Shown here one piece after another: positions 1,359 to 25,562 of a DNA stretch of 64,000 nt. Under the pieces are notes generated by a model, which ran no database searches, was not told the DNA's origin, and was given only the letters and a program-made list of their open reading frames with translations. Made by a program: the position numbers and the translations under genes. Position 1 is the stretch's first letter. Each line of letters opens with the position of its first letter. The stretch lies in assembly GCA_947488655.1 (NCBI GenBank), contig CANKZZ010000007.1:24928-88927 (forward strand), given 5' to 3'. This DNA comes from an uncultured Psychroserpens sp. Its GTDB lineage: Bacteria; Bacteroidota; Bacteroidia; Flavobacteriales; Flavobacteriaceae.

Positions 1359-2177
1359 CTACAATATTTTTTCAATTCCTTGTGTGTAATCATCAAAGTC
1401 AATTAAGTTATTATGACTACCACCATCAATAGTAATAAACGTAGTGTGTCTTGGCGCAACTATTTTTAATTTCTCTGCTGAAGAGTAAGGGACAACACCA
1501 TCATTTGTACCATGAAACATTGTAATGGGACAACTAACATTTATAATAAACTCATTTGAAGGAAATGTATATTTTAATAAAGACGTCACAGGAAATATAG
1601 GAAATCTATATTTAGCTACATCTAAAATACTGTAATAAGGTGTTTCTAAAATAAGTTGACTTGGATTGTTTTTTGAAGCCAAATAAGTTGAAATTCCTGT
1701 ACCCAAAGAGCGACCATAAATTGTAATTTCGTTTTCATTATAAGACTTTAACAAATAGTTATAGCAGTATTGCGCATCATCGTAAAATGCTTGCTCACTA
1801 AGCTTGCCTTTACTTTTTCCGTAGGTACGATAATCCATTATAAAAACATCATAGTTTTTGGCTACAAAAAATTCTGAGATTTTACCCCAACGACTCAAAT
1901 CACCAGCGTTTCCGTGAAAATATAATATGACTCCTTTTGGGTTTTTCGTTTTAAAATGTATAGCGTTAATAGATACATCTGCTTGAGGAGTTAAAAATAC
2001 TTCTTCAAACGGAAAATTGAATTCGTATTTATAATCCTGAGACAATTCCGTAGGAAGAAATAATAATTTTTCTTGTAAAAAATATAGAGATGCGCCTATC
2101 ATAACATATAATATTAACAGTACTTTAAATACCTTTTTAAGCCTTTTTTTTAGTCGGTTTTGAGGAGTGGATAACAT
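1359..2177 (-). CDS. alpha/beta hydrolase with N-terminal membrane anchor
   Basis: Has the FHGNAG oxyanion region, the nucleophile elbow GRSLG, and C-terminal HGTNDGVVP...GGSHNN (Asp/His of the triad). Confidence 0.8.
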   Translation of the reverse strand: MLSTPQNRLKKRLKKVFKVLLILYVMIGASLYFLQEKLLFLPTELSQDYKYEFNFPFEEVFLTPQADVSINAIHFKTKNPKGVILYFHGNAGDLSRWGKISEFFVAKNYDVFIMDYRTYGKSKGKLSEQAFYDDAQYCYNYLLKSYNENEITIYGRSLGTGISTYLASKNNPSQLILETPYYSILDVAKYRFPIFPVTSLLKYTFPSNEFIINVSCPITMFHGTNDGVVPYSSAEKLKIVAPRHTTFITIDGGSHNNLIDFDDYTQGIEKIL

Positions 2178-3015
2178 TTATGCTCGTGGTTTGTAAATCT
2201 ATGGTTTTAGGTGTTTTATTTAAAATATCATCTAACATATTGTGATACGATTCAAAATTATTTAGATTTTTGTGTCCGCCTCCAATAACAGTGTGCAGTT
2301 TTGTTAATTTTGGATTTACTTTAGATAATTTAATACTTGTTTTAAAAGGTATTAGTTTATCGTGTGTACCATGAATAATATGAATGGGACATTGCACATA
2401 TTTAAGCCATTTATAAGTTGGTAAAGGATATTTTATGAGCAAAGACAGAGGCATAAATGGTGCGTAACGTGCTGTAACCTTAGTTAAACTGTAATAAGGA
2501 GCATCAAGAATCAACATTTTGGGTTGATTCATTGACGCGAGTTTTGCTGCGAAGCCTGAGCCAAGTGATCTTCCGTAGAGAATAATACGATCTTCTGTTG
2601 TTTGCTCTTTTAGCTTATTATAAACTAATTGCAAATCTCGCTTTATAGCTTTTTGCGAACGTCTGCCTGTACTTTTACCGAAGCCACGATAATCTACCAT
2701 TAACACATTGTAACCGTGTCTTGTAAAATCTACAGCAAACTTGCCCCAACCCTTAATACTTTTAGAGTTTCCTTTAAGATACAAAACGACACCTTTGCTT
2801 TCTCCCTTCGGAAAAAATCGTAACCCATTAATTATGGCACCATCTCTAGTTTCTAGATTATACTCCTTGGTGTTTTGGTTTTCGTAGTTAAACTGAAAAT
2901 CGGCTGGCAACTTTTCTGGCTTAAACAACATATAATCTTGTAAATAATACAATGCAATACTAATTGCGATGTAAATAACAAGAATTGTTATAATGGTAGA
3001 AATCCAATAGGCCAT
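2137..3015 (-). CDS. alpha/beta hydrolase with N-terminal membrane anchor (tandem paralog)
   Basis: Same architecture as the neighbour (LKGNS, GRSLG, HGTHDKLIP, GGGHKN). Its 3' end overlaps the next gene by 41 nt. Confidence 0.8.
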   Translation of the reverse strand: MAYWISTIITILVIYIAISIALYYLQDYMLFKPEKLPADFQFNYENQNTKEYNLETRDGAIINGLRFFPKGESKGVVLYLKGNSKSIKGWGKFAVDFTRHGYNVLMVDYRGFGKSTGRRSQKAIKRDLQLVYNKLKEQTTEDRIILYGRSLGSGFAAKLASMNQPKMLILDAPYYSLTKVTARYAPFMPLSLLIKYPLPTYKWLKYVQCPIHIIHGTHDKLIPFKTSIKLSKVNPKLTKLHTVIGGGHKNLNNFESYHNMLDDILNKTPKTIDLQTTSINVIHSSKPTKKKA

Positions 3016-3052
3016 TGAGAGTAATTTGTTCTAACAAGATATAAAAAATATA

Positions 3053-3748
3053 TTATTGCAAATATTTTAAAAACACATCTGCAAAAGGGTCTTGGTTTAC
3101 AACCGTATAATAGAATAAAGCCCCTAACCAACCATGAAACAAACCTAAAACATACAAGTTTTTAGATTTTAGGTAAATGTACCCATAAAACAATGCTAAT
3201 ATAAAAGTGCCAATTAACAACCAAATAGAAGGGTAATGTACTAATGAAAACAAAGTTGCTGTGATTAAAATGACAATTTCTTTTTTAAGTTTTATCGTTT
3301 TTAGCGTACTTAAATTTCCTGCCACTAGACCAATAGTTAAAAACTGTTGAACTGTTCCCCAAATGGGATACGTAATAAGTAATGGTATAATATGCCATGT
3401 TGGGTTAAGCGTATCTTGAACATACCCAATTACCAAAAATGACACTATTGAGATAATTGCAAAAGGCAATACTAATTTTAAAACAGAAGTAAAATTATCG
3501 TGTCTAAATCCCCAATCTTTTAATATTTGGTTGTCTTTTTTATACCGATATCTTACATACAATGACCATGATAATATGGCAATAATAACAAATGGCAATC
3601 GCCAATTGAGATAATCCATAAATACGAACTTCCCTACTCCTGTTAGCGCTACAGCAAAGATTTCAAGTAATCTCACTTTATCGCTTGCTGGTCTTGTCAA
3701 ATTAAAATTCGAGAAATCTGTTAAGTATTTGGTGAGTTTTTGTTTCAT
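3053..3748 (-). CDS. CPBP family intramembrane glutamic endopeptidase (CAAX protease/bacteriocin-processing family)
   Basis: Multi-TM protein with the late motifs SLVHYP and FHGWLGALFY, typical of the CPBP/Abi family. Confidence 0.7.
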   Translation of the reverse strand: MKQKLTKYLTDFSNFNLTRPASDKVRLLEIFAVALTGVGKFVFMDYLNWRLPFVIIAILSWSLYVRYRYKKDNQILKDWGFRHDNFTSVLKLVLPFAIISIVSFLVIGYVQDTLNPTWHIIPLLITYPIWGTVQQFLTIGLVAGNLSTLKTIKLKKEIVILITATLFSLVHYPSIWLLIGTFILALFYGYIYLKSKNLYVLGLFHGWLGALFYYTVVNQDPFADVFLKYLQ

Positions 3749-3760
3749 ATTGGTACAGAT

Positions 3761-4096
3761 TTAATTTACTATGATTACCCAAGAAGTTATAATAAAATAT
3801 GCACTAATTAAAATAGCTGTTAAGATGAGATATGATTTACAAAAGCTTAATTTCTTTTTACGTTTTGCATAATAATAAAATATATACATTATACTTAGAA
3901 GGATTAGTAATACCGTTGTAAAGATGCTTAGGATTGTTAACCAAGAAAAACTTTCAAAAAAATCCATACAACAAAGCCATGTAAACAATACACTTAATAC
4001 AAATATGTCATAAGCCAAAAGACACGTAATTACTAATGACACTAAAAAGTGCGTTATGTTTAATTTAGATTGCCAAACTTGTATAAAATAATTCAT
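3761..4096 (-). CDS. hypothetical small membrane protein (3-4 TM)
   Basis: ATG start, almost entirely hydrophobic. I recognise no family. Confidence 0.45.
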   Translation of the reverse strand: MNYFIQVWQSKLNITHFLVSLVITCLLAYDIFVLSVLFTWLCCMDFFESFSWLTILSIFTTVLLILLSIMYIFYYYAKRKKKLSFCKSYLILTAILISAYFIITSWVIIVN

Positions 4097-4110
4097 ATTA
4101 ATTATGGTTT

Positions 4111-4145
4111 AAAACCTTTCGGGCTTTTCACACCCGAAAGGTTTT
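4111..4145 (-). terminator. hairpin terminator (potentially bidirectional)
   Basis: 13-bp stem AAAACCTTTCGGG/CCCGAAAGGTTTT with a 9-nt loop, flanked by A/T runs. It lies directly 3' of the 160-aa gene. Confidence 0.65.
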
Positions 4146-4167
4146 TGGGTTACTAACTAACCAATCA

Positions 4168-4650
4168 TCAAAATAAAAAAATCATGTAGACAATTATACC
4201 TTCGGCAATTCCTGTGATAATACTCATACCAAGAATGTCTTTAATTTTACTTCTTAAAAAGAATACAATACTTAAAATAGCCATTATTGCTGCCAATAGG
4301 ATTTCTAGAGCATCTATTTTTGATAGTAAAAAAGTAATTCCTGTAAATGCAGCAGTAATCCCGACTGTGATTAAACAAAATTTAATAATCTCATCTTTAG
4401 AGTAATTACCTTCTTTAAATCCCTTCCTTAAATCTCTTAGAATAGATAAAATAAAAAGTAATGGCACAACAGATAGAAATGGAGCAAAAATGACTTTAAT
4501 GCCTTTTACAATAGTTAAATCATAGTAAAAGAAAAACGCAATAGCTGTAAACGCTAATAAACCGGTTACGATTATAGATTGAAATGTAAATAACAATTCT
4601 CTTTTATTTGAATTACTTCTCGGTTTTGGTGGTTGAATAATTGGATTCAT
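4168..4650 (-). CDS. hypothetical membrane protein (4-5 TM)
   Basis: ATG start and hydrophobic profile. It has a weak paralogous stretch to the 155-aa neighbour (about 9/29 identities around ..K....IxA..L..P.LF). Confidence 0.5.
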   Translation of the reverse strand: MNPIIQPPKPRSNSNKRELLFTFQSIIVTGLLAFTAIAFFFYYDLTIVKGIKVIFAPFLSVVPLLFILSILRDLRKGFKEGNYSKDEIIKFCLITVGITAAFTGITFLLSKIDALEILLAAIMAILSIVFFLRSKIKDILGMSIITGIAEGIIVYMIFLF

Positions 4651-4692
4651 AATTTTAAATTTTTGATGATTATATTTTAATTTCTTATTGTA

Positions 4693-5160
4693 TTAAGCAG
4701 TTAGAAAAAACACATGAATAGCTAATGAGAGTAGAACACCACTTAAAATACCATTGACTCTCAAATTATTATACAAAATATAATTAAGCACATAACTACT
4801 TATGGTTGTGGAGTTAATAAGGTGTGCAAAAACAAGATGGTCTTCTAGTTTTTGACCACTTATCCACTCTATAAGTTGCATACTTACCACACCAATAACA
4901 ACACTCACAATGAGCAAAATTGTTGCTGGTCTTTGATGTTTAAGTTTGTATGCATCTGTATTTTGTGGTAAAAAATGTTCTATTAAAAGAAAACGCACAA
5001 AAAACAACATTGGCAATGGGAATAAGATGGATGCTATAATTTTAACTACATCTTTTAATGTTTTGATTTCGTCATATCCCAAAAACACCAAATAGACAAA
5101 TACAATTACAGACACTCCTGTAGTAGCTATAAATGCAGTATTTAATTTTTTAAGCTGCAT
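4693..5160 (-). CDS. hypothetical membrane protein (4 TM)
   Basis: ATG start and hydrophobic profile. It starts 1 nt after the stop of the unlisted small ORF 5162..5320. Confidence 0.5.
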   Translation of the reverse strand: MQLKKLNTAFIATTGVSVIVFVYLVFLGYDEIKTLKDVVKIIASILFPLPMLFFVRFLLIEHFLPQNTDAYKLKHQRPATILLIVSVVIGVVSMQLIEWISGQKLEDHLVFAHLINSTTISSYVLNYILYNNLRVNGILSGVLLSLAIHVFFLTA

Positions 5161-5161
5161 T

Positions 5162-5320
5162 TTAAAAACCTAATGGGTTCGTATTAGTCATTGTTAAACT
5201 CGCCAATTGCTCAACACTATTATTATAGCGTTCTACAATTTCATTTTGTATTTGTTTTGAAAACACAACCAGTGCGCTCATAACTATAATAAAACTGGTA
5301 ATTTTTATACACATTTTCAT
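5162..5320 (-). CDS. unlisted 52-aa ORF: MKMCIKITSFIIVMSALVVFSKQIQNEIVERYNNSVEQLASLTMTNTNPLGF
   Basis: Translated by hand from the reverse strand. ATG at 5320..5318 and TAA at 5164..5162. It has an N-terminal hydrophobic segment. Only 1 nt separates its stop from the ATG of the next gene, which suggests translational coupling. Confidence 0.35.
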   Translation of the reverse strand: MKMCIKITSFIIVMSALVVFSKQIQNEIVERYNNSVEQLASLTMTNTNPLGF

Positions 5321-5392
5321 ACTAAACTGTTTTGTTGATTACGAGACAAATATGCGATAGATCTCAAAGCCATGAAACACAGTTTTTTATAA

Positions 5393-5470
5393 AAACTGAC
5401 GATTAGATATATTACAAGACCTTATTTTATACTATATTTAATAACTCAAATAGATTTAAACTGACGATTA
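5393..5470. promoter_or_regulatory. two exact 13-nt direct repeats AAACTGACGATTA in a divergent promoter region
   Basis: Copies lie at 5393..5405 and 5458..5470, 65 nt apart, inside the 193-nt AT-rich spacer between the divergent genes 5320(-) and 5514(+). Confidence 0.35.
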
Positions 5471-5513
5471 ATTAACCTCCAAAAACAAGTTTCCGTCAAA
5501 ACAAAAAACAAAC

Positions 5514-7025
5514 ATGACAGACTTAAATGCTATAGTATCTACTTTTTCTTCGGAAGATGAGCAACGTTTTATAAATTATCTAGAAAAAAAGAATAAACGA
5601 AACGACACAAAAAATATTGAGCTATTTAAACTCTTAGTAGAAAACGAACTTTCTTCTAATGATATATGCAAAACCCTTTATAAAAAAGACAACAAAGTTG
5701 CCTACCACGCATTAAGAAAAAGATTGTATCAATCTCTTATAGATTTTATAGCAAACTTAAATCTCGAAGAGGAGAACTCTGTAGATATGCAAATTATCAA
5801 ATACATTTTAGCATCACGTACATTTCTCATTCATAAAAAGCCAGATATAGCTTATAAAATTCTTGATAAGGCTGAAGCTTTAGCACAAGAACATTTCTTG
5901 TTTCCAATACTTAATGAAATTTATCATACAAAAATTCAATATGCTTACATGAATCCTTCGGTAGATATTGATGTGTTGATTTCCAATTTCCGAAGTAATC
6001 AAAAACAACATTTTTTAGAAGAAGAGCTTAATATGGTTTATGCAAAAATTAGGCAAACCTTAAATGACATGACTTACAAGGGGAAAGTTTTAGATTTTAA
6101 CACCATACTTAGTAATACTTTAAAAGACTATAATATTGATGTATCTGAGTCTTTATCGTTTAAATCTTTATACCAGCTTGTAAGTATCGTAAGTTTATCT
6201 GCCCTTGCTACCAATGATTACTTAAAAATAGAACCCTTTTTAATTGATACGTATCAAAAAATTAAAAATCATAAAAACAAATACAAGCAATTAGCATTTC
6301 ATATTAAGGTGGTTTATATGATTGCCAACACGCTTTTTAGAAATAAAAAGTTTGAAGCCTCTTTAGAGTACTTAGAAATTATGAATGTCTTAATGCAAGA
6401 GCAGCGAAAAAAATACCACTCAACCTTTAAACTTAAATATGCATTATTAATTGCTCTTAATTACAATTACATAAATAAACAGGATGAGGCAATTTCTATT
6501 TTAGAATCTGTTAAACAAAGTAAACATACAGATATAGAATCTTTATTAGATATCCATTTAGGGCTAGTTATGTGCTACATGCAAAAATCTGATTTTAAAA
6601 GTGCAAAAACTATCTTCTCTAAGTTTTATCATACAGATAAGTATTATATTGAAAAAGCTGGAAAAGAATGGGTCATTAAAAAAAACTTAGCCGAAATTAT
6701 CCTTTTTATAGAACTAGGAGAGCTAGACTTAACCGAGTCTAGACTTAAGAGTTTTAAACGCTCTTATTTTGGATACTTAAAACAAATTAACCAAGAGCGC
6801 GTCATTACATTTATCAAAATTATTGAGTCTTTCTACAAAAACCCAAACCAAGTTAGGTCACCAAAGTTTGCAGAAAAAATAGAACATTCATTCACTTGGG
6901 TTAATGAGCAGCAAGAAGATATTTTTGTCATGAGTTTCTACGCATGGCTAAAAAGTAAGATGGAAAATACATCTCTTTATGAAAGCACATTAACTCTAGT
7001 TAAAAGAGCTCAAAATGTTAATTAG
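5514..7025 (+). CDS. hypothetical helical-repeat (TPR-like) protein
   Basis: 503-aa ORF with ATG start and no signal peptide. It looks all-helical and repeat-like. I recognise no specific family. Confidence 0.55.
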   Translation: MTDLNAIVSTFSSEDEQRFINYLEKKNKRNDTKNIELFKLLVENELSSNDICKTLYKKDNKVAYHALRKRLYQSLIDFIANLNLEEENSVDMQIIKYILASRTFLIHKKPDIAYKILDKAEALAQEHFLFPILNEIYHTKIQYAYMNPSVDIDVLISNFRSNQKQHFLEEELNMVYAKIRQTLNDMTYKGKVLDFNTILSNTLKDYNIDVSESLSFKSLYQLVSIVSLSALATNDYLKIEPFLIDTYQKIKNHKNKYKQLAFHIKVVYMIANTLFRNKKFEASLEYLEIMNVLMQEQRKKYHSTFKLKYALLIALNYNYINKQDEAISILESVKQSKHTDIESLLDIHLGLVMCYMQKSDFKSAKTIFSKFYHTDKYYIEKAGKEWVIKKNLAEIILFIELGELDLTESRLKSFKRSYFGYLKQINQERVITFIKIIESFYKNPNQVRSPKFAEKIEHSFTWVNEQQEDIFVMSFYAWLKSKMENTSLYESTLTLVKRAQNVN

Positions 7026-7123
7026 AGGTTAAAATCAAAACCTCCTTTAAACTTATTTAATGTTTTCTAGTCAAAGAAGTAATCGATTAAAAAACATATT
7101 AATAATTTAAAGTAAAACACATT

Positions 7124-11722: not shown

Positions 11723-14700
11723 ATGAAAAAAATTACTCTAATACTTTTATGTTACCTCTCTATAAATTTTTCATTCTCTCAAGGAACTGATGTTTTAAGC
11801 GCTGAGCAATTTTGCTCTGGCACATCAGAACTTACATTTAACAATGTTTATGGATCACCAGATAATACTGCTGTAGGATGCTTAGGTTCTATTCCAAACG
11901 CTGCTTATTTTTATTTAGAAATTGACCAACCTGGTGATTTAATTTTCACAATAAGCCAAGAAGATAATCTTGGCTTTCCAATAGATGTAGATTTTATAGC
12001 TTGGGGACCTTTTACAGATGTAGCAGATGCTGATGCTAGTATTACATTCGCAGATTGTCCTACATGTCCTAATAACACTGCAGACCCATCATTTTACCCT
12101 TATGCTCCAGACGAAATAACAGACTGTAGCTTTAGTATTGCTCCAACTGAAACCTTAAATATTTTAAATGCTAATCAAGGCGAAATCTATGTAGTACTTA
12201 TCACCAATTATAATGGTAGCGAAGGCACAATAAATTTTCAACAAACTTCAGGTAATGGAACCACAACATGTACGTCACTACCAGTATGTGGTAGTCAATA
12301 TTTTGATCAAGGTGGAGCATCTGGACCATATTCCAGTAATGAAACTACAACAATAAACCCATATTTTGCTGGAGGAACGGTAACCGTAGATTTTACTATT
12401 GTTAACATTCCTGACGCAGGAGACGTACTTACAGTTTACAATGGACCAAATAACACGTTTCCTGTCTTAGGAACTGTAACTACTGCTCCAGTTACTTATA
12501 CATCCAATACAACAGGTAATCTTACAGGAAGCTTAACTTTTGAACTCATTACAGATGGTGATGCAAATGTAGGTGCTGGATGGGAAGCAGATATTACGTG
12601 TACTCCTCCTCCAACGCCTCCTACATGTGGATCTACATTTTATGATAGTGGAGGAGCTGGTGGAGATTATTCAAATTACGAATTAGAAACTACAACATTT
12701 TTTCCTGATACAGCTGGTGATGCTGTAACAGCAACGTTTACTTATTTTGATACTGAAAGTTGTTGCGATGAATTGAGAGTATATGACGGTCCCAACACCT
12801 CATTTCCGCTTTTAGGCGTATTCGCAGGCACAGGTATTCCCGGACCTTTTACTTCATCAGACGCTTCTGGCGCATTAACATTTGTATTTGAAAGCGACTT
12901 TCTAATAACTAATGGCGGATGGGCAGCAAATTTGACTTGTGCACCTTACGTTCCTCCAGTAATTTGTGGTTCTACGTTTTATGATAGTGGAGGAGCTGGT
13001 GGAGATTATTCTAACAACGAATTTACCACAACGACTTTGACTCCAGATGTTCCTGGCACTGCATTAACAGTAACATTTACTGCTTTCGAACTTGAAGATA
13101 CATATGACTTTTTAGAAATTTTTGATGGACCCAATAATACATTTCCAAGTTTAGGTAACTTTACAGGAAATACAATTCCTGGTCCATTTACTTCAAGTCA
13201 CCCAAGTGGTGCTTTAACTTTTGTATTTGATAGTGACGGATCTGTCACCGATCCAGGTTGGGCTGCAGATATAACTTGTATCGATAATTGCAATTTAATT
13301 ATTACAGATACTAATTACCCTATAGGATCTAGTGACTGTAATCTAGATTATGTAGAACTTACAACGAATGCTCCTCCTCCTCCTCCAACAAATAATATAT
13401 TCACAGAGAATTTTAATGCAAATGTATTTCCTCCAGGCTGGACCATGGTTAATGGCGGTACTGGTACAACTTGGATTATATCAAACACTAATGACGCTGG
13501 TGGGACAACCAACGAGGCAAAATTAGATTGGGACTCGGGCTTTGTGGTATCTACTTGGTCTATGACATCTCCATTAATTGACATTGCCACTTACACTAAT
13601 CTTCAACTTAGTTTTAAGCATGATCTATATCAATTTGGAACAGATTTTACAATTTTTGTAGAAACATCTTTAGATAATACTAATTGGACCACACAATACT
13701 TTGTTGCCAATCCACCAGATATTACTGAAACTAGAAACGTTGACATCTCTTCATTAGATGGAAATAACGATTTATATTTAAGATTTAGATTTACAGGAGA
13801 TTCTTTTGATTTATTCCATTGGGCAATTGACGATATTATTATTAGTGCAGATGGAGCACCTCAACCTCCACAAATCACATGGTCACCAACATTAGGACTA
13901 TACACAGACAGTGCTTTAACCAATTCTTACACTGGAGGATTTGCAGGAACAGTATATGCTGCGCCTAATGGTATCCAATTATATACCGCAACAGATGCTA
14001 ATGGGTGTACTGATAATGCTACTGTAATTTATAATAAAAAAACATGGAATGGCTCAGTTGACGACAATTGGTATATAGGAAATAATTGGACACCAGAAGG
14101 CGCACCAACAATAGACAATTGTATTGTTATACCAGATAATGGATCTGTACCAAACAATCCTATTGCAGATAGATTATCCTCTCCTCCTATCCCACTTCCT
14201 CCCGCTGAAGCAAGAAATCTAACACTATTGGCTGATGCATATCTCGAAATTGAAACCAACACAGAGCTAATAGTGCAAGAATGGATTAACGTTCAAAATA
14301 CTGGTATTTTAAATTTAAAAAGTAGCTCAAGTTTAATCCAAATAGAAAACTCTGCTGTAAACACAGGTGAAATTCATATGCAACGCTCACCTAACTTTAA
14401 TGAAAGTGCTGTAGCAAATTCAGAGTATATCTATTGGTCATCTCCTGTGGCAAACTTTCAAGTAACTAATATTTCTCCATCCTCAAGTCAATTATTTCGT
14501 TGGCAACCAACAGTTGCTGGAAATGGAGCAGGTAATCATGGATATTGGTATAATGCCTCAGGAACAATGGCTGACGGTGAAGGGTATATCGTAAGAGGGT
14601 TAGGTGGAACTCCAGCAACAATTCCTTCAACAACTTACACTATTTCTAACAATACTGCATTATTTAGTGGAGTACCAAATAACGGTATAATCACAAAACC

Positions 14701-15844
14701 TATTACACATGGTGGTTATAATGGAGGTCCATATGCTGGAGTTGGAAATACAGCTACAAATGAAGATGATAATTGGAATTTGCTTGGTAATCCATATCCT
14801 TCAGCAATTTCAGCAAATGCATTCACTAACTTTAATACAAATATAAACGGTACTGTCTACGTGTGGGACCATACAGGCGCGCCAAGTACAGCACTAGACC
14901 CATTTTATGAAGATTACGTTTATAACTACGATGGTAATGATTATATAGAACATAATAATACAGGCTCTAATCCTCCAGGTACTAATGATCTTTACATTGG
15001 TTCTGGACAAGCATTTTTTGTCCTAATGAATCACTCTGCTGCATCAGGAACAAACGTTACATTTAATAACAGCATGAGGCAGGTACTATCAAATTATAAC
15101 AATAATACATTTTTTAGAAATAGTGAAGAAGAAAATAGTACTAATGGCAACAGTAATCCAGGAAATAGAATTTGGTTAGACCTATTATCTCCAAATAATA
15201 TTACCAATACCATTTTAGTTGGCTATGTAGAAAATGCTACAAATAATTTTGACCGCTTATATGATGGTTATGACTTTAGTAGCGGAGATAACAGTGGGTT
15301 TTATTCAATAATAAACGATAAAACATTATCTATACAAGGTAGATCTCTTCCTTTTTCACAAGAAGACACTGTACCTTTAGGTTTAATAGCTAATGAAACA
15401 GGCACTCACACTATTGCCATTAATACGATAGATGGTCTATTCTTAACTCAAAATCAAAATATATATTTAGAGGATACCGTCTTAAATATAATTTATAATT
15501 TACGTCAATCTCCATACACCTTCACAATAGACCAAGGTGTACACAATGATCGATTTATTTTAAGATATACTAACGAAACTTTAGGTGTAAATATATTAGA
15601 TGATAATGATGGCATTACAATTACAGCACCTAAAAATGAGTATATAAAAGTAACTTCGGAAATTGGAAACATCAAAACCCTTGCTATTTATGATATCCTA
15701 GGCAGAGAAATCATTAAAACGGAAGATATTAATCAACCACAATTCATCTTGAACAAAATAAAATTGTCTGATGGAGCTTACATAGTTAAAGCAGCATTGT
15801 ATAATGGTAAACAAAAGATTCAAAAAGTCGTAATAAGGCAATAA
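11723..15844 (+). CDS. large T9SS-secreted surface protein with three CUB-like modules and a MAM/LamG-like region
   Basis: Has a signal peptide and three ~105-aa modules starting CGS(T/Q)(F/Y)(Y/F)D.GG. Pro-rich linkers are present. The C-terminal ~80 aa (..IYDILGREI...GAYIVKA....KVVI) look like a type A T9SS sorting domain. Confidence 0.85.
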   Translation: MKKITLILLCYLSINFSFSQGTDVLSAEQFCSGTSELTFNNVYGSPDNTAVGCLGSIPNAAYFYLEIDQPGDLIFTISQEDNLGFPIDVDFIAWGPFTDVADADASITFADCPTCPNNTADPSFYPYAPDEITDCSFSIAPTETLNILNANQGEIYVVLITNYNGSEGTINFQQTSGNGTTTCTSLPVCGSQYFDQGGASGPYSSNETTTINPYFAGGTVTVDFTIVNIPDAGDVLTVYNGPNNTFPVLGTVTTAPVTYTSNTTGNLTGSLTFELITDGDANVGAGWEADITCTPPPTPPTCGSTFYDSGGAGGDYSNYELETTTFFPDTAGDAVTATFTYFDTESCCDELRVYDGPNTSFPLLGVFAGTGIPGPFTSSDASGALTFVFESDFLITNGGWAANLTCAPYVPPVICGSTFYDSGGAGGDYSNNEFTTTTLTPDVPGTALTVTFTAFELEDTYDFLEIFDGPNNTFPSLGNFTGNTIPGPFTSSHPSGALTFVFDSDGSVTDPGWAADITCIDNCNLIITDTNYPIGSSDCNLDYVELTTNAPPPPPTNNIFTENFNANVFPPGWTMVNGGTGTTWIISNTNDAGGTTNEAKLDWDSGFVVSTWSMTSPLIDIATYTNLQLSFKHDLYQFGTDFTIFVETSLDNTNWTTQYFVANPPDITETRNVDISSLDGNNDLYLRFRFTGDSFDLFHWAIDDIIISADGAPQPPQITWSPTLGLYTDSALTNSYTGGFAGTVYAAPNGIQLYTATDANGCTDNATVIYNKKTWNGSVDDNWYIGNNWTPEGAPTIDNCIVIPDNGSVPNNPIADRLSSPPIPLPPAEARNLTLLADAYLEIETNTELIVQEWINVQNTGILNLKSSSSLIQIENSAVNTGEIHMQRSPNFNESAVANSEYIYWSSPVANFQVTNISPSSSQLFRWQPTVAGNGAGNHGYWYNASGTMADGEGYIVRGLGGTPATIPSTTYTISNNTALFSGVPNNGIITKPITHGGYNGGPYAGVGNTATNEDDNWNLLGNPYPSAISANAFTNFNTNINGTVYVWDHTGAPSTALDPFYEDYVYNYDGNDYIEHNNTGSNPPGTNDLYIGSGQAFFVLMNHSAASGTNVTFNNSMRQVLSNYNNNTFFRNSEEENSTNGNSNPGNRIWLDLLSPNNITNTILVGYVENATNNFDRLYDGYDFSSGDNSGFYSIINDKTLSIQGRSLPFSQEDTVPLGLIANETGTHTIAINTIDGLFLTQNQNIYLEDTVLNIIYNLRQSPYTFTIDQGVHNDRFILRYTNETLGVNILDDNDGITITAPKNEYIKVTSEIGNIKTLAIYDILGREIIKTEDINQPQFILNKIKLSDGAYIVKAALYNGKQKIQKVVIRQ
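12287..13279 (+). repeat. three tandem CUB-like coding modules (aa 189-296, 302-409, 415-519)
   Basis: Modules 2 and 3 share an identical 35-nt stretch TTTTATGATAGTGGAGGAGCTGGTGGAGATTATTC (about 12638 and about 12977). Confidence 0.8.
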
Positions 15845-21234: not shown

Positions 21235-21525
21235 GATATCGGTTAAATAATTAAAGGTCTAATATACAAAAATTGTTCTATCAAATCTATCTCTCAATAT
21301 AAATAATACCCAAGAAATTAAACATATGTCTCATAAATCGAGTATTAATTCTTAGGGTGTTTGACTCATTTTTCAGTTAATATTTTTAAGTAGTATTAAA
21401 GTTTATTTTTATCCCTACATCATCTCAATCAAATCAAATATTTCAATGATATAAATTTAATATTAAAAGAGATTCTCGTTTCTTATATTTTTTATAACTT
21501 ATCTCCTCATATAAATTCTTTTAAT

Positions 21526-21909
21526 ATGAATACAATTACTATACAAGATGAAAGTGCTGCTGGTGCGATTTTAAATGAAATAACGCTAAAGTTTAGTGAA
21601 GAATACATTTCTGTTTCGGCATTAATAAAAGCAAGAATAAAACAAGAAATTTTTCAGTATGAAAACAATGTAGAATCTTATAAAAAAGGCTTGGTTGTTC
21701 CTGGATCGCTAGAAAGCAAATTGAATAATAAAAAAGCTAAATCTATCGATGCAGAAAAACAACTATATATTGCTTTAGATGCATTTAAAAATAATGGATT
21801 TATTCTACTTGTGGATGATGAGCAGGTTGTTGACTTAGAACAAAAAGTATTAGTTGACGCTTCTACTGTAGTCTCATTTATAAAACTCACACCTCTTGTT
21901 GGTGGCTAA
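21526..21909 (+). CDS. ubiquitin-like (ThiS/MoaD-type beta-grasp) protein ending in Gly-Gly
   Basis: ATG at 21526. The last codons are GGT GGC TAA (21901..21909), giving ...GFILLVDDEQVVDLEQKVLVDASTVVSFIKLTPLVGG*. This tail matches the ThiS/MoaD logic (..N.e.v......l.dgD.v.i.p.v.GG). It sits 12 nt upstream of the next gene and in one operon with an E1. Confidence 0.6.
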   Translation: MNTITIQDESAAGAILNEITLKFSEEYISVSALIKARIKQEIFQYENNVESYKKGLVVPGSLESKLNNKKAKSIDAEKQLYIALDAFKNNGFILLVDDEQVVDLEQKVLVDASTVVSFIKLTPLVGG

Positions 21910-21921
21910 TTTAAAAATACT

Positions 21922-24504
21922 ATGTTTAATTTTTTTAAAAAGAAAAAAGTAGATTCAAAATTAGAGTATATAGAAGATGCTATAAATAAAATCAACAAAA
22001 ATTCTCGTTTTATTTATACTACAAATGATATTGCAGGCAATGATGATTATAATACATTAAAAAATGAATCTACGACGTATCAAAAAACGTTTATATATGA
22101 TAGCATAAATTATATTGAAACTATCCTTAATAAAGAGTATGACAATTCTAAAAAAGTTATAAAAAATAGAGATAATACTATTTACCATTACCGTTTAACT
22201 GCATTTGCTATAATAAGTGGTTTAATGCGAAAAAACTTAGATTATAATGAAGATGAATGGATAGAATTACTCAAATTAGTACATCAAAAGACAACTTCAC
22301 TAAAACGAAACGCTTACGGTTTTTCTCTTAGTGATTTCCCAATTAATTATGCTATACAGCAAATTGAGCGTTATATTAAAAAAGAAGGCTTATCTACAGA
22401 ACTCTCCAATTATATAAAAAGCATGCTCAAATGGGACGCTTTAAACAACACAAATAATGGGTATTGGGGAAGTGATTTAAAAAAATCTGTTGCTAAACTA
22501 AGTAAAATAGTACAGGTTGATGGTGAATTTGTTCCCTTTGTTTTAAAAACAGAAGACATAGGTCCTCAGGTTAATACGATTATCAATGCTAGTAAAAAGA
22601 GTAACGAGCTTCATCAATTGTTTTATTTAACCTATGGAGCTTCTAGCTCTAAACCTTCAAAAAAATTTAAAACCCAAACTGAAGACCTTATAAAAGTAAT
22701 TGGTAAAAATGAATACAGAAAAATTGCTCAAGACATTTTAACTGTTGCTATAGGCCATCCAATTGTAGAAGAAACAAAATCTTACACTTATAATAATCAG
22801 GTAAATGAATATAAACATTATACCTATTTATGTGATTCTAGCAAACAATTTATTAAAGGGATTGTTTGGACAGTTTCACCGTTTTCAGATAAAGAGACAC
22901 TTAATATTCTTAGCAATTTACTAGTTAAATCATACACCAAAATGCCAGGAGTTGGTCCTGCTGCAGCTGCTGTTGGTAATGCTTGTATTTATATAATGGG
23001 TAATATGCGAGGTAAAGATGGCTTAGGTGCTTTATCTCGTATAAAATTAAAACTAAAACAGAATAACGTAAAAAAGAGTATCGATAAATATTTAATTGAA
23101 GGCGCTAAAAAATACAATGTATCCGTAGAAGAACTCAAAGAAATGGCTGTTCCTGATTTTCAATTAAAAAACGGAATGAAAACTATAAACTTTGATGATT
23201 ATAAATTAAACATCTTTATTGCAAACAGTAAAGTAAATCAACAATGGCTAAAGCCTGATGGCAATAGCATGAAATCTGTTCCATCAATCGTAAAAAACTC
23301 CGGTAAGTTAACGAGTCTACTTAAAGACGTTAGAAAGGAGGTTAAAGAGATTCAAAAAGTATATACTGCTCAAAAACAAAGAATTGATAACCTATTTATT
23401 TTAAATCGATCTTGGGATTTACCAACATTTAAAAAATATTATTTAGATCATGGTGTTGTTAACCCTATAGCAACAAAACTAATCTGGACATTTCAAAATG
23501 ACACAAATAAAGAAGACGCGCTTTTTGTTAAAGGCAAATGGCAAAATGTCAATGGAAAAACATTATGCTGGATAGATGATAATACTATAGTTAAGTTATG
23601 GCATCCTGTTTTTGCCAAAGAAAAAGACATTGTAGAATGGAGAGATAAAATCATAGACTTAGAACTAAAACAACCTATTAAACAAGCGTTTAGAGAACTG
23701 TATATTTTAACAGATGCCGAATTAAACACACAAAATTATTCTAATAGAATGGCTGCCCATCTTTTAAAGCAACATCAATTTAATGCATTAGCAGGACTTC
23801 GTGGTTGGAAATATGCTTTAATGGGAGCTTATGATAATGGACGTTATGATGAATCTTGCAGCAAATATCTACCAGAATATAACATGACAGCAGAGTATTG
23901 GATAGATGAATTAAACGACCACGATGCTTTTAATGATGCTGGGATTTGGCTTTATGTAGCGACAGACCAGGTAAAATTTAAAGACCAAGACGGACACGTT
24001 ATAAATTTAATTGATGTACCAAAAATTGTGTTTTCAGAAATTATGCGAGATGTAGACTTGTTTGTTGGTGTAGCAAGTGTAGGTAATGATCCAGAATGGC
24101 AAGATAACAATGGAGATAGACAAAATCACAGAGATTATTGGACCTCGTATTCTTTTGGTGATTTAACTGAAATAGCAAAAACTAGAAAATCTATTTTAGA
24201 ACGATTGCTACCAAGACTTTCAAAAATTAAAAATAAAGCAACGATAGAAGGCAAATTTCTTATTGTTGAAGGCCATTTAAGAACCTATAAAATTCATATA
24301 GGAAGTGGCAATATTTTAATGGAACCTAATGACCAATATCTATGTATTGTCCCTTCTAGGTCACCTAATAAAGCTACAGATAAATTATTTATTCCCTTTG
24401 AAGGTGATAAAGGTTTATCTATAGTTCTAAGCAAAGCTTTTCTTCTTGCCGAAGACAATAAAATTACTGACACGACAATTTTAAGTCAAATAAACCGTAA
24501 TTAA
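21922..24504 (+). CDS. large DUF4132 domain protein (MolR/YehQ-like)
   Basis: 860 aa. Signature stretches I associate with DUF4132 and its C-terminal extension are WHPVFA...W.., QPIKQAFRELYILT, NRMAAHLLKQHQFNALAGLRGW, DVDLFVGVASVGNDPEW and RTYKIHIGSGNILMEPNDQYLCIVP. I saw no zinc-finger, E2 or JAB motif. Confidence 0.75.
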   Translation: MFNFFKKKKVDSKLEYIEDAINKINKNSRFIYTTNDIAGNDDYNTLKNESTTYQKTFIYDSINYIETILNKEYDNSKKVIKNRDNTIYHYRLTAFAIISGLMRKNLDYNEDEWIELLKLVHQKTTSLKRNAYGFSLSDFPINYAIQQIERYIKKEGLSTELSNYIKSMLKWDALNNTNNGYWGSDLKKSVAKLSKIVQVDGEFVPFVLKTEDIGPQVNTIINASKKSNELHQLFYLTYGASSSKPSKKFKTQTEDLIKVIGKNEYRKIAQDILTVAIGHPIVEETKSYTYNNQVNEYKHYTYLCDSSKQFIKGIVWTVSPFSDKETLNILSNLLVKSYTKMPGVGPAAAAVGNACIYIMGNMRGKDGLGALSRIKLKLKQNNVKKSIDKYLIEGAKKYNVSVEELKEMAVPDFQLKNGMKTINFDDYKLNIFIANSKVNQQWLKPDGNSMKSVPSIVKNSGKLTSLLKDVRKEVKEIQKVYTAQKQRIDNLFILNRSWDLPTFKKYYLDHGVVNPIATKLIWTFQNDTNKEDALFVKGKWQNVNGKTLCWIDDNTIVKLWHPVFAKEKDIVEWRDKIIDLELKQPIKQAFRELYILTDAELNTQNYSNRMAAHLLKQHQFNALAGLRGWKYALMGAYDNGRYDESCSKYLPEYNMTAEYWIDELNDHDAFNDAGIWLYVATDQVKFKDQDGHVINLIDVPKIVFSEIMRDVDLFVGVASVGNDPEWQDNNGDRQNHRDYWTSYSFGDLTEIAKTRKSILERLLPRLSKIKNKATIEGKFLIVEGHLRTYKIHIGSGNILMEPNDQYLCIVPSRSPNKATDKLFIPFEGDKGLSIVLSKAFLLAEDNKITDTTILSQINRN

Positions 24505-25202
24505 TGTCATCAATATTTGAAGTTCAAGATAAACTTATAGGGAAGACAAAATCTCAGCAATTAAAGAATTCTCGAATTGCAATTGTTGGTCTTGGTGGTC
24601 TTGGCTGCTCAGTTGCTATGGGAATAGTACGATTGGGTATTAATAATTTAGTTTTAATAGATAATGATAAAATAGAGGTATCAAATATTCCAAGGCAAAT
24701 TCTCTTCGAAAAAAAAGATATTGGTCACTCAAAAATTGTAACTGCAAAACAACAACTTTTAGACATTTTTGAAGATTTAACTATTAATTGTATTGACGAT
24801 TTTATAACCGTTAGTAATGGTACTAAACTTTTAGAAAATGTTGATATTGTAATAGATTGTACAGACAATTATATGGCGCGTTATGCTGTGAGTAAAACAT
24901 GTCTATCGCTAAAAATACCTATGATTTATGGAGGAGTTCAAGCCTTCGAAGGGCAGATAGGTACTTTTAATTACAATAAAAGCAAACCCTTTCACATACT
25001 GTTTCCTAACCTTAATACTCTACTATTAGAAGAAAAATGTGAAGCATCAGGTGTATTACCTTTTGTAGTACAAACTGTTGCCAATCTTCAAATTATTGAA
25101 GCCTACAAGATCATCTGTGGTGAACAAAATGTGCTTAGCAATCAACTTTTATGTATTAATACCTTATCTAATAAATCCAGAATTATAAATTTAAATCATT
25201 AG
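24504..25202 (+). CDS. ThiF/MoeB/HesA-family E1-like adenylyltransferase (minimal, 232 aa)
   Basis: The ATG shares one base with the upstream TAA (TAATG at 24502..24506). Has VGLGGLG (Rossmann), DNDKIEVSNIPRQ, CTDN and KCEASGVLPFV (Cys179, codon 25038..25040). It has no CxxC pair and no rhodanese domain. Confidence 0.85.
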   Translation: MSSIFEVQDKLIGKTKSQQLKNSRIAIVGLGGLGCSVAMGIVRLGINNLVLIDNDKIEVSNIPRQILFEKKDIGHSKIVTAKQQLLDIFEDLTINCIDDFITVSNGTKLLENVDIVIDCTDNYMARYAVSKTCLSLKIPMIYGGVQAFEGQIGTFNYNKSKPFHILFPNLNTLLLEEKCEASGVLPFVVQTVANLQIIEAYKIICGEQNVLSNQLLCINTLSNKSRIINLNH

Positions 25203-25235: not shown

Positions 25236-25562
25236 TTACAATAAATAAGGTTGCGCATGTCCATTATCTAAAAGCCACCTATTTATGTCAATTCCATCAT
25301 AAATTATAGTTGCCAAATAACGACCATATTTACCTTGTTTATCTTTGTAAGAGTGTATCTCTACCTCTTTATCTAAAATCATTTCTCTCAAAATATCACG
25401 CACAACCTTGCCTTGCTCGCGTTCTTCCCCTCTAAGCTCTGGAGTGTCAATACCAAATAATCTTAATTTCATCTCTTGATAATGAAGAAACCCTAAATCT
25501 ACCATTGCAGTTACGGTATCTCCATCATATACACTTATAATTTTTGCTTTATAATGATACAT
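25236..25562 (-). CDS. staphylococcal-nuclease-like (thermonuclease family) protein, short form
   Basis: YDGDT, RLFGIDTPE and KYGRYLA match the SNase Ca/active-site motifs. It is only 108 aa and has no signal peptide. Confidence 0.75.
   Translation of the reverse strand: MYHYKAKIISVYDGDTVTAMVDLGFLHYQEMKLRLFGIDTPELRGEEREQGKVVRDILREMILDKEVEIHSYKDKQGKYGRYLATIIYDGIDINRWLLDNGHAQPYLL

Follow-up and report, generated by a model that had tools for sequence, protein, structure and literature searches.

The established role of bacterial gene pairs encoding a ubiquitin-like protein (Ubl) and an adenylating E1 enzyme is that of sulfur carriers, to which anti-phage conjugation systems, also containing an E2 enzyme and a JAB peptidase, have been added more recently. 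In the present study, a 64,000 nt stretch of DNA from an uncultured Psychroserpens sp. (Flavobacteriaceae; overall GC content of 33%), hereafter referred to as the window, was analysed with respect to three co-directional, tightly packed genes (21526-25202), which encode a 127-aa Ubl, an 860-aa protein containing the domains DUF4132 and DUF7737, and a 232-aa E1 of the ThiF type. This module provides the Ubl/E1 pair with a new partner, which contains two domains without known function. For each of the three proteins, databases contain an entry of 100% identity.

Among previously studied genes, DR_A0165 and DR_A0166 of Deinococcus radiodurans share with the window a homologous Ubl ending in Gly-Gly (GG) directly upstream of a DUF4132+DUF7737 protein, but differ in the partner, which is 1626 aa long with a DUF5724 N-terminus, and in having no adjacent E1. 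The MoaD-MoaE/MoeB and ThiS-ThiF systems likewise employ a beta-grasp carrier with a terminal GG and a MoeB/ThiF-type E1 with a crossover-loop cysteine, the carrier gene adjoining that of its partner and the E1 gene being sometimes unlinked. In contrast, the module exhibits no ThiS or MoaD sequence match, its E1 falls below the family cut-offs and lacks the zinc site, and its partner is a protein of 860 aa built from a solenoid, DUF4132 and DUF7737. Genes for MoaE, ThiG or cofactor synthesis do not accompany it; neither thiG, thiH, thiC, thiE nor a MoaE/moa operon was found in the window neighbourhood or among the conserved and flanking genes of 80 related loci.

Bil, Bub, 6A-6E (Iyer et al. 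2006) and CBASS Cap2/Cap3 operons also combine a Ubl carrying a C-terminal Gly with an E1, whereas the module contains no E2, no JAB or other peptidase and no CD-NTase, and its E1 is a single-domain protein of 232 aa; DUF4132/DUF7737, the third component of the module, is not listed for these operon classes. Urm1-Uba4, TtuB-TtuC and SAMP-UbaA represent minimal Ubl/E1 pairs without E2 or E3 and with possible dual roles as sulfur carrier and modifier, and share a link to oxidative stress with the Deinococcus member of the module. In these systems, the E1 usually contains a rhodanese domain or recruits one, and functions in the thiolation of tRNA or the synthesis of cofactors, whereas the module has no rhodanese and no thiolation enzyme, but an obligatory large partner.

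Atg12 is a Ubl dedicated to one partner, Atg5, and in lineages whose Atg12 no longer ends in Gly, the two proteins associate non-covalently. By analogy only, this parallels the GG/Cys and non-GG subtypes described below; the module differs in being bacterial, in a partner without sequence or fold relation to Atg5, and in the lack of Atg7/Atg10-type enzymes. YehI and MolR, the DUF4132 paralogs of the Escherichia coli yeh locus, share the DUF4132 region, but have no DUF7737 and no GG-ending neighbour, and are found in a MoxR-VWA-SWIM context.

The module appears to work like a Ubl/E1 system, yet it falls outside the ThiS/ThiF, MoaD/MoeB, Urm1-type and Bil/Bub/Cap2-type groups. The original prediction, made from the letters of the window, had put it forward as an undescribed system, and no description of the module was found in the searchable literature, in which DUF4132 is named by five papers and DUF7737, DUF5724 and the PF numbers by none; a 2006 census of prokaryotic Ubl operons contained no mention of the related names or taxa looked for. 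This claim nevertheless requires qualification, as DR_A0165/DR_A0166 had already been studied, unrecognised as a Ubl-DUF4132 system. New elements are a Ubl family without a Pfam model, a dedicated E1 clade and an obligatory partner.

The conserved gene pair and its facultative E1

The Ubl gene (21526..21909, + strand, as for all three genes) terminates in a TAA codon directly after KLTPLVGG, and the open reading frame of the 860-aa protein (21922..24504) starts 12 nt later; its stop codon TAA (24502-24504) and the ATG of the E1 gene (24504..25202; start codon 24504-24506) have one A in common, forming TAATG. This layout was as originally predicted, including the 291 nt gene-free spacer upstream and the convergent gene downstream.

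In 80 related loci, only three neighbouring gene clusters were shown to be recurrent, i.e. those of the Ubl (77 loci), the DUF4132 protein (66) and the E1 (17), and no JAB or other Ubl peptidase was among the conserved clusters; the remaining flanking genes differ between loci and are unrelated. Of 74 loci with enough downstream sequence, 70 (including the paralog-bearing L051 and L057) were found to carry a DUF4132/DUF7737 gene immediately after the Ubl gene, typically ~12 nt later. The same order, with a GG-ending Ubl, was observed in an Anaerolineales and a gammaproteobacterial metagenome-assembled genome (MAG), in Nonomuraea, in Novosphingobium and in Deinococcus. The E1 gene, in contrast, adjoins the partner gene in only 17 of the 62 loci covering that position, and therefore the conserved unit, found in seven phyla, is a two-gene pair (Ubl followed by DUF4132/DUF7737 protein) and not the three-gene synteny originally proposed, which stood for the pair across phyla and fell short for the E1. 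The arrangement is not due to chance, as it recurs in hundreds of genomes.

The Ubl itself did not match any Pfam, NCBIfam or PADLOC model, and ThiS (PF02597) matched just one of 26 family members, with an E-value of 0.48. Its AlphaFold2 (AF2) model, obtained with a 26-homolog alignment (predicted local distance difference test, pLDDT, 78.7), displays the order beta-beta-alpha...alpha-beta-beta-beta-beta with the last five residues disordered, and the top 50 Foldseek matches in the PDB were nearly all beta-grasp Ubls (human MOCS2A, a MoaD, first, followed by NEDD8, SUMO and ubiquitin); the small protein is thus predicted to adopt a beta-grasp fold, as had been anticipated. A profile search of 1.84 billion cluster representatives (clusters at 50% identity) returned 1965 clusters at E≤1e-3 and 928 at E≤1e-10, with matches extending nearly always to the final residue of the protein.

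The tail of the window Ubl, SFxKLTPLVGG with a free C-terminal GG, is representative of this family. A terminal GG, the conservation of which had also been anticipated, was present in 265 of 269 sequences inspected (consensus L-[TV]-P-L-V-G-G), two of the four exceptions being fragments, and the final residues SF-K-TPLVGG are invariant across the 26-sequence alignment. Among the matches listed in a scan of one genome per species, relatives were identified in at least 475 GTDB species, mostly Bacteroidota with some cyanobacteria, and GG-ending Ubls are encoded by Bacteroidota, Chloroflexota, Alpha- and Gammaproteobacteria, Actinomycetota and Deinococcota. One apparent DUF4132-Ubl fusion (P0348) was rejected, its sequence resembling a frame-shifted gene prediction from DNA of high GC content.

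The partner was shown to contain DUF4132 (PF13569; residues 447-629, 23260..23808; E=1.6e-37, 129.6 bits) and DUF7737 (PF24879; residues 752-857, 24175..24492; E=4.7e-39, 133 bits), both far above the gathering cut-off of 27 bits and both present in 32 of 32 aligned homologs. According to the AF2 model (pLDDT 82.1), residues 1 to ~410 (21922..23151) form an alpha-solenoid of the HEAT/ARM kind, followed by alpha/beta domains; Foldseek searches of PDB and BFVD matched the solenoid only, weakly, to ARM/HEAT proteins (E~0.01), and no solved structure is related to the 860-aa protein by sequence. The most conserved stretch in the homolog alignment, residues ~551-752 (23572..24177), includes the motifs WHP, QPxKQAFRExYxLTxAE, YSNRxAAH and FSExMRDVDLFVGVASVGNDP and has no PDB or Pfam relative beyond DUF4132; the GNAT protein 3dsb_A, considered as a relative of this stretch, was discarded as a chance-level match (E=0.025).

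DUF7737 carries the motif YKIHxGSxNILMEPNDQYLCIVP, within which His792 (codon 24295-24297) and Cys808 (codon 24343-24345) are located. Cys808 is invariant in 32 of 32 homologs of the 860-aa type, and the corresponding cysteine is kept in the Deinococcus, Nonomuraea, Anaerolineales and gammaproteobacterial members. The region common to E. coli YehI and the 860-aa protein is DUF4132 (residues 317-654, E=4e-10); because YehI lacks DUF7737 and has no GG-ending neighbour, the Ubl appears, on sequence comparison and with YehI as the single counter-example, to track the DUF4132+DUF7737 architecture rather than DUF4132 as such. The dedicated pairing with DUF4132 in the original prediction holds in the main, and the tracked domain appears to be DUF7737, of which that prediction was unaware. 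YehK, encoded next to YehI, was rejected as a Ubl (it ends in ...NQEIE, without GG, and YehI has no DUF7737).

The 232-aa E1 matched ThiF (PF00899) with an E-value of 6.7e-62, so that two of the three domain matches expected at the outset, PF13569 and PF00899, were obtained and that of the 127-aa protein was not. It scored below every NCBIfam equivalog cut-off for ThiF, MoeB, MoeZ and UbaA (e.g. 175.5 versus 275.25 for ThiF TIGR02356, 143.7 versus 376.55 for MoeB TIGR02355 and 162.3 versus 266 for NF004281). Alignment with E. coli MoeB and ThiF revealed intact nucleotide-binding and catalytic motifs (GLGGLG at residues 29-34, RQ and DCTDN) and a crossover-loop cysteine, Cys179 (codon 25038-25040), aligned with MoeB C187 and ThiF C184. 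The zinc-binding CxxC motifs are missing: FHIL occupies the position of MoeB CYRC, and the protein stops before the second. Among 18 cassette E1s, all retain the catalytic motifs and the crossover-loop cysteine, and none has CxxC.

A database-wide search separated the E1 matches into one group of ~230 aa with at least 41% identity and another with 36-38% identity, mostly 381-aa ThiF+rhodanese proteins; the cassette clade of ~230 aa is without the rhodanese domain (PF00581) that its nearest outgroup carries. Some E1s of the first group directly adjoin Ubl and DUF4132/DUF7737 genes, and others are suggested to lie on contigs that also carry DUF4132, as the E1 and DUF4132 entries agree in the length of their longest contig. 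The E1 is facultative but dedicated, every clade member with a checkable context being located beside DUF4132, and it is not an ordinary ThiF or MoeB, given its sub-cut-off scores and this association. E1-bearing loci belong to Flavobacteriaceae, Sphingobacteriaceae, Chitinophagaceae, Saprospiraceae and others, and the E1 start usually overlaps the upstream stop codon, indicative of translational coupling. Thus, all four points on which the original prediction had staked itself (a beta-grasp fold, a conserved terminal GG, recurrence of the gene order in other genomes and a Ubl/E1 pair distinct from the ordinary cofactor proteins) came out in its favour, within the restriction on the E1 given above.

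Variations on this arrangement were also observed. Rapidithrix thailandica (L057) encodes four DUF4132/DUF7737 proteins around a single Ubl gene, and the Saprospiraceae loci L051 and L052 have two such paralogs plus an E1. Four 'orphan' GG-Ubls are not followed by a DUF4132 gene (L021, L032, L050 and L072), the next gene encoding an FGGY carbohydrate kinase in L032 (10433-11917, Pfam) and a 495-aa protein occupying the partner position in L050. In the gammaproteobacterial MAG (L083), a 250-aa ThiF gene (4347-5099) without the crossover-loop cysteine is located ~500 nt upstream of the Ubl gene, which may represent a housekeeping enzyme or a third case of independent E1 acquisition; a rhodanese gene (2215-2532) ~3 kb away is the sole such case.

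Co-variation of terminal Gly-Gly, DUF7737 cysteine and E1 linkage

A second subtype of the pair consists of a Ubl-like protein of 134-157 aa and a DUF5724-DUF4132-DUF7737 partner of ~1650-1700 aa (e.g. L093:7144-7617(-) with 1929-7043(-), L095:7839-13356, L096:6833-12387 and L098-L177), and is common in gut Bacteroidales metagenomes. In its Deinococcus version, the Ubl ends in GG, and DUF7737 carries the motif as FLCIVP. In the Bacteroidota version, represented by three plasmid records and 80 metagenome loci, the Ubl tail is L[SA]G[RS]x[WY] instead of GG, and A, S, N, L or H is found where Cys808 aligns. His792 is retained in both subtypes.

An E1 gene was present in none of the 80 metagenome loci of this giant Bacteroidota subtype (L098-L177). 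With respect to linkage, the E1 was found in 0 of 47 giant non-GG loci versus 17 of 62 GG-type loci (Fisher's test, p=2.6e-5). Conversely, the GG-type Ubl is always accompanied by a cysteine at position 808, in 32 of 32 homologs as well as in the Deinococcus, Nonomuraea, Anaerolineales and gammaproteobacterial members. Terminal GG, DUF7737 cysteine and E1 linkage therefore occur together, since the GG type combines an invariant cysteine with an E1 in part of its loci and the giant Bacteroidota subtype is without all three.

The Deinococcus member and the genomic surroundings

The 83-residue SEP068184 sequence of DR_A0165, taken from the supplement of PMC9650054, matched the C-terminal half of the Ubl family profile, up to and including the final GG (hhalign probability 96.9%, E=1.6e-10). 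As annotated, DR_A0165 is 134 aa long, ends in LTALAGG and is located 3 nt upstream of DR_A0166, which encodes a 1626-aa DUF5724+DUF4132+DUF7737 protein and has no E1 gene next to it. Profile and domain comparison thus indicate that DR_A0165/DR_A0166 is a member of the module family.

The drA0165-drA0166 operon has been described to possess a DdrO operator (RDRM) and to be strongly up-regulated on DdrO depletion, with DRA0166 protein increasing after mitomycin C treatment in an IrrE-dependent manner, and E. coli molR was noted in the same work as a described LexA-regulon member (PMC8533742). The reported operator site was confirmed in the sequence, 63-82 nt upstream of the D. radiodurans Ubl start, and a similar palindrome is found at the equivalent upstream position in D. 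ficus. DR_A0165 was furthermore reported to be induced by gamma rays and H2O2, its deletion mutant being more H2O2-resistant; it was predicted to have a MoaD/SAMP1-like structure, pulled down the thioredoxin DR_A0164 and was judged a Deinococcus-restricted peptide (PMC9650054). In neither PMC8533742 nor PMC9650054 is the small protein related to DUF4132, to its GG terminus or to an E1, and the available part of the co-immunoprecipitation supplements of PMC9650054 was found to list neither DR_A0166 nor an E1.

Stress response as the physiological setting of the module is a lead only, provided by the DNA-damage and oxidative induction in Deinococcus. In 81 upstream regions (the window and the 80 related loci), the Bacteroidetes SOS motifs CTAA-N5-TTAG and GGA-N5-TCC were found at the frequency seen in shuffled sequences, and the stress link is therefore not transferable to the window organism. 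The 291 nt spacer upstream of the Ubl gene (21235..21525; 21% GC) is AT-rich and presumably serves as promoter or leader. Its last ~95 nt (21430-21525), directly 5' of the Ubl start, are conserved among six Flavobacteriaceae relatives (equivalent region in L001-L005) and contain TAAAATTTAA and ATAACTTAACT blocks. This region may constitute a promoter or operator, although no known motif could be assigned to it, and a sigma-70 scan proved uninformative for Bacteroidota.

On the downstream side, the unit is bounded by a convergent gene for a 108-aa SNase-like nuclease (25236..25562, - strand), 33 nt beyond the E1 gene, which is not conserved with the module (no SNase match in the 80 related loci). 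The wider flanks encode a urocanase, a DUF4136 protein, a SulP transporter and the E1 and E2 subunits of a 2-oxoacid dehydrogenase. In agreement with the original prediction, the cassette is located outside any thi or moa context. A second E1 gene is absent from the window, and Pfam, PADLOC and neighbourhood searches associated no E2, JAB, rhodanese, thi or moa gene with the cassette or, more generally, with the module.

Genes of DNA metabolism adjoin the module at several unrelated loci (L094:13198-13782, L082:8565-9652, L086:6863-7354 and window 25236-25562), and are not conserved; they encode endonuclease dU, MazG together with an HhH-GPD glycosylase, RadC and the SNase-like nuclease. Genes for a YeeE/YedE membrane protein and thioredoxin/TlpA recur near the module (L094:6191-7720, L093:409-1815 and L096:2277-3520), including ~6 kb upstream in 11 gut Bacteroidales loci (among L098-L177), as well as in Fulvitalea and Chondrinema; the gene order in D. 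radiodurans is YeeE/YedE twice, trxC and Ubl. This proximity may reflect a sulfur or redox link, or chance. In loci L086-L088 (Logan SRR146102xx), the full trio is located beside genes for a phage-type integrase, a TraG/VirD4-like ATPase, RadC and a DUF6443 (RHS-associated) protein, suggesting that it is carried on an integrative element. Elsewhere in the window, a 1373-aa open reading frame (11723-15844) matched a single Pfam model, that of the CUB domain (residues 444-515), an unusual domain for bacteria.

Candidate activities of the module

In the preferred reading, to which we assign a probability of about 40%, the E1-activated Ubl would be passed covalently to or through the cysteine of DUF7737. 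The E1 would adenylate the C-terminal glycine of the Ubl, with Cys179 perhaps acting as a transient carrier, and the invariant Ubl tail would dock onto the C-terminal half of the partner. The activated carboxylate would then move to Cys808 of DUF7737, as a thioester, the partner being an E2/E3-equivalent or the single dedicated target; a role as scaffold is also conceivable. Subsequently, a lysine might receive the Ubl, either on the partner itself or on proteins bound by its solenoid. For loci without an E1 gene, the assumption is that activation is provided in trans by a MoeB/ThiF-type housekeeping E1. That the module might, beyond this, represent a broad bacterial Ubl-conjugation pathway, which would operate without canonical E2, E3 or deubiquitinase, place both thioester cysteine and target choice in the partner and be deployed upon stress or DNA damage, is proposed tentatively, as possible rather than probable.

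Several observations weigh against covalent transfer through DUF7737. The co-variation of GG, cysteine and E1 derives from few independent lineages, as all non-GG cases belong to one Bacteroidota giant clade and thus reflect few independent events, and a cysteine that tracks GG fits an acyl-disulfide with a thiocarboxylate equally well. As 73% of loci have no adjacent E1, activation in trans is an assumption, and the stress link may be specific to Deinococcus. The Foldseek E-values of the Ubl are weak (0.015 or higher; target-normalised template-modelling score 0.64), Pfam and PDB searches with the isolated DUF7737 or the conserved middle region returned nothing, and no E2, E3 or deubiquitinase fold was detected by hhalign, Pfam, PADLOC or PDB searches or by Foldseek with the full-length model. 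The order of elements in DUF7737 (an alpha helix, four or five beta strands, His...Cys and two helices) had suggested a UBC (E2-like) fold, which was rejected at an hhalign probability of 0.3% against five UBC sequences; the functional analogy alone was kept.

The main competing explanation, which we regard as somewhat unlikely, is a sulfur carrier, in which the E1 would adenylate the Ubl, a sulfurtransferase acting in trans would generate a thiocarboxylate and the partner would be the sulfur-using enzyme or acceptor, with Cys808 forming an acyl-disulfide or taking a persulfide by analogy with MoaD-MoaE/MoeB, ThiS-ThiF and Urm1. In E. coli, moaD and moaE are linked and moeB is unlinked, and the module is organised comparably, its carrier and partner genes being closely linked and its E1 gene often located elsewhere. 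Consistent with this explanation, the E1 is nearest to MoeB and ThiF, the YeeE/YedE and thioredoxin genes adjoin the D. radiodurans module and thioredoxin/TlpA genes are near L093 and L096, and the best structural matches of the Ubl are of the MoaD type (5mpo_A, 6jc0 and 6jbz), as also reported for DR_A0165, which pulled down Trx1 and the deletion of which changed H2O2 resistance (PMC9650054). However, the 80 related and 80 giant-subtype loci have no conserved gene for a rhodanese, a cysteine desulfurase, a PP-loop ATPase or cofactor synthesis, and the rhodanese domain of the nearest E1 relatives is missing specifically from the cassette clade. A solenoid of ~400 residues and an invariant 11-residue Ubl tail would, moreover, be unusual for an enzyme inserting sulfur into a small molecule, and the existence of the non-GG subtype argues that the pair can work without carboxylate chemistry.

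That last observation is also the starting point for a further explanation, considered quite unlikely, in which Ubl and partner would form a non-covalent two-subunit complex, the Ubl tail plugging into the partner and the E1 being a modulator (adenylation switch) or a secondary acquisition. It would account for the giant Bacteroidota pairs without terminal GG, cysteine and E1, for the lack of an E1 at most loci and for the invariance of the entire 11-residue tail, beyond GG. It is less readily reconciled with a free GG terminus in 265 of 269 sequences and in seven phyla, with a dedicated E1 clade retaining intact catalytic motifs, and with a co-varying cysteine, which is not easily accounted for unless the carboxylate takes part in a reaction.

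Conjugation of the Ubl to invader proteins, as part of an anti-phage or conflict system of the Bil/Bub/Cap2 kind, is deemed very improbable. In PADLOC, the E1 alone matched, to the E1 part of Cap2-type E1-E2 models (E~1e-20), while the Ubl and partner were without a match and no E2 or JAB gene was found. The trio of L086-L088 lies beside an integrase, a TraG-like protein and RadC, flanking genes differ from locus to locus, and a few of them (~8 of 110 flanking proteins) match DarT, PtuA, WYL or PD-T4-2_B models; against this, housekeeping genes make up the majority of the 110 immediate neighbours, conserved synteny places the module between catabolic genes in the window and its relatives, and the Deinococcus member belongs to a DNA-damage regulon and not to a defence island. 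Finally, ordinary ThiS/ThiF or MoaD/MoeB cofactor genes flanking DUF4132 by chance, as might be read from the ThiF Pfam match, the terminal GG and the best NCBIfam matches to ThiF and MoeB, are effectively refuted, as far as the window and related loci show, by E1 scores far under the equivalog cut-offs, the absent zinc CxxC, a Ubl without ThiS or MoaD Pfam match and without thi/moa genes nearby, and the tie of the Ubl family and (where checkable) the E1 clade to DUF4132/DUF7737.

With these results, DUF4132 and DUF7737 gain a first concrete functional lead, together with a Cys/His pair as catalytic candidate and a minimal E1 of their own. The family is tied to the radiation/desiccation regulon of Deinococcus, where two experimental papers studied its genes without recognising them. 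The subtypes with and without GG, cysteine and E1 provide a built-in contrast between a putative covalent and a putative non-covalent form. If the broad conjugation pathway deployed upon stress or DNA damage holds true, the module would represent a bacterial counterpart of damage-induced ubiquitylation, and the non-GG subtype its natural non-covalent variant.

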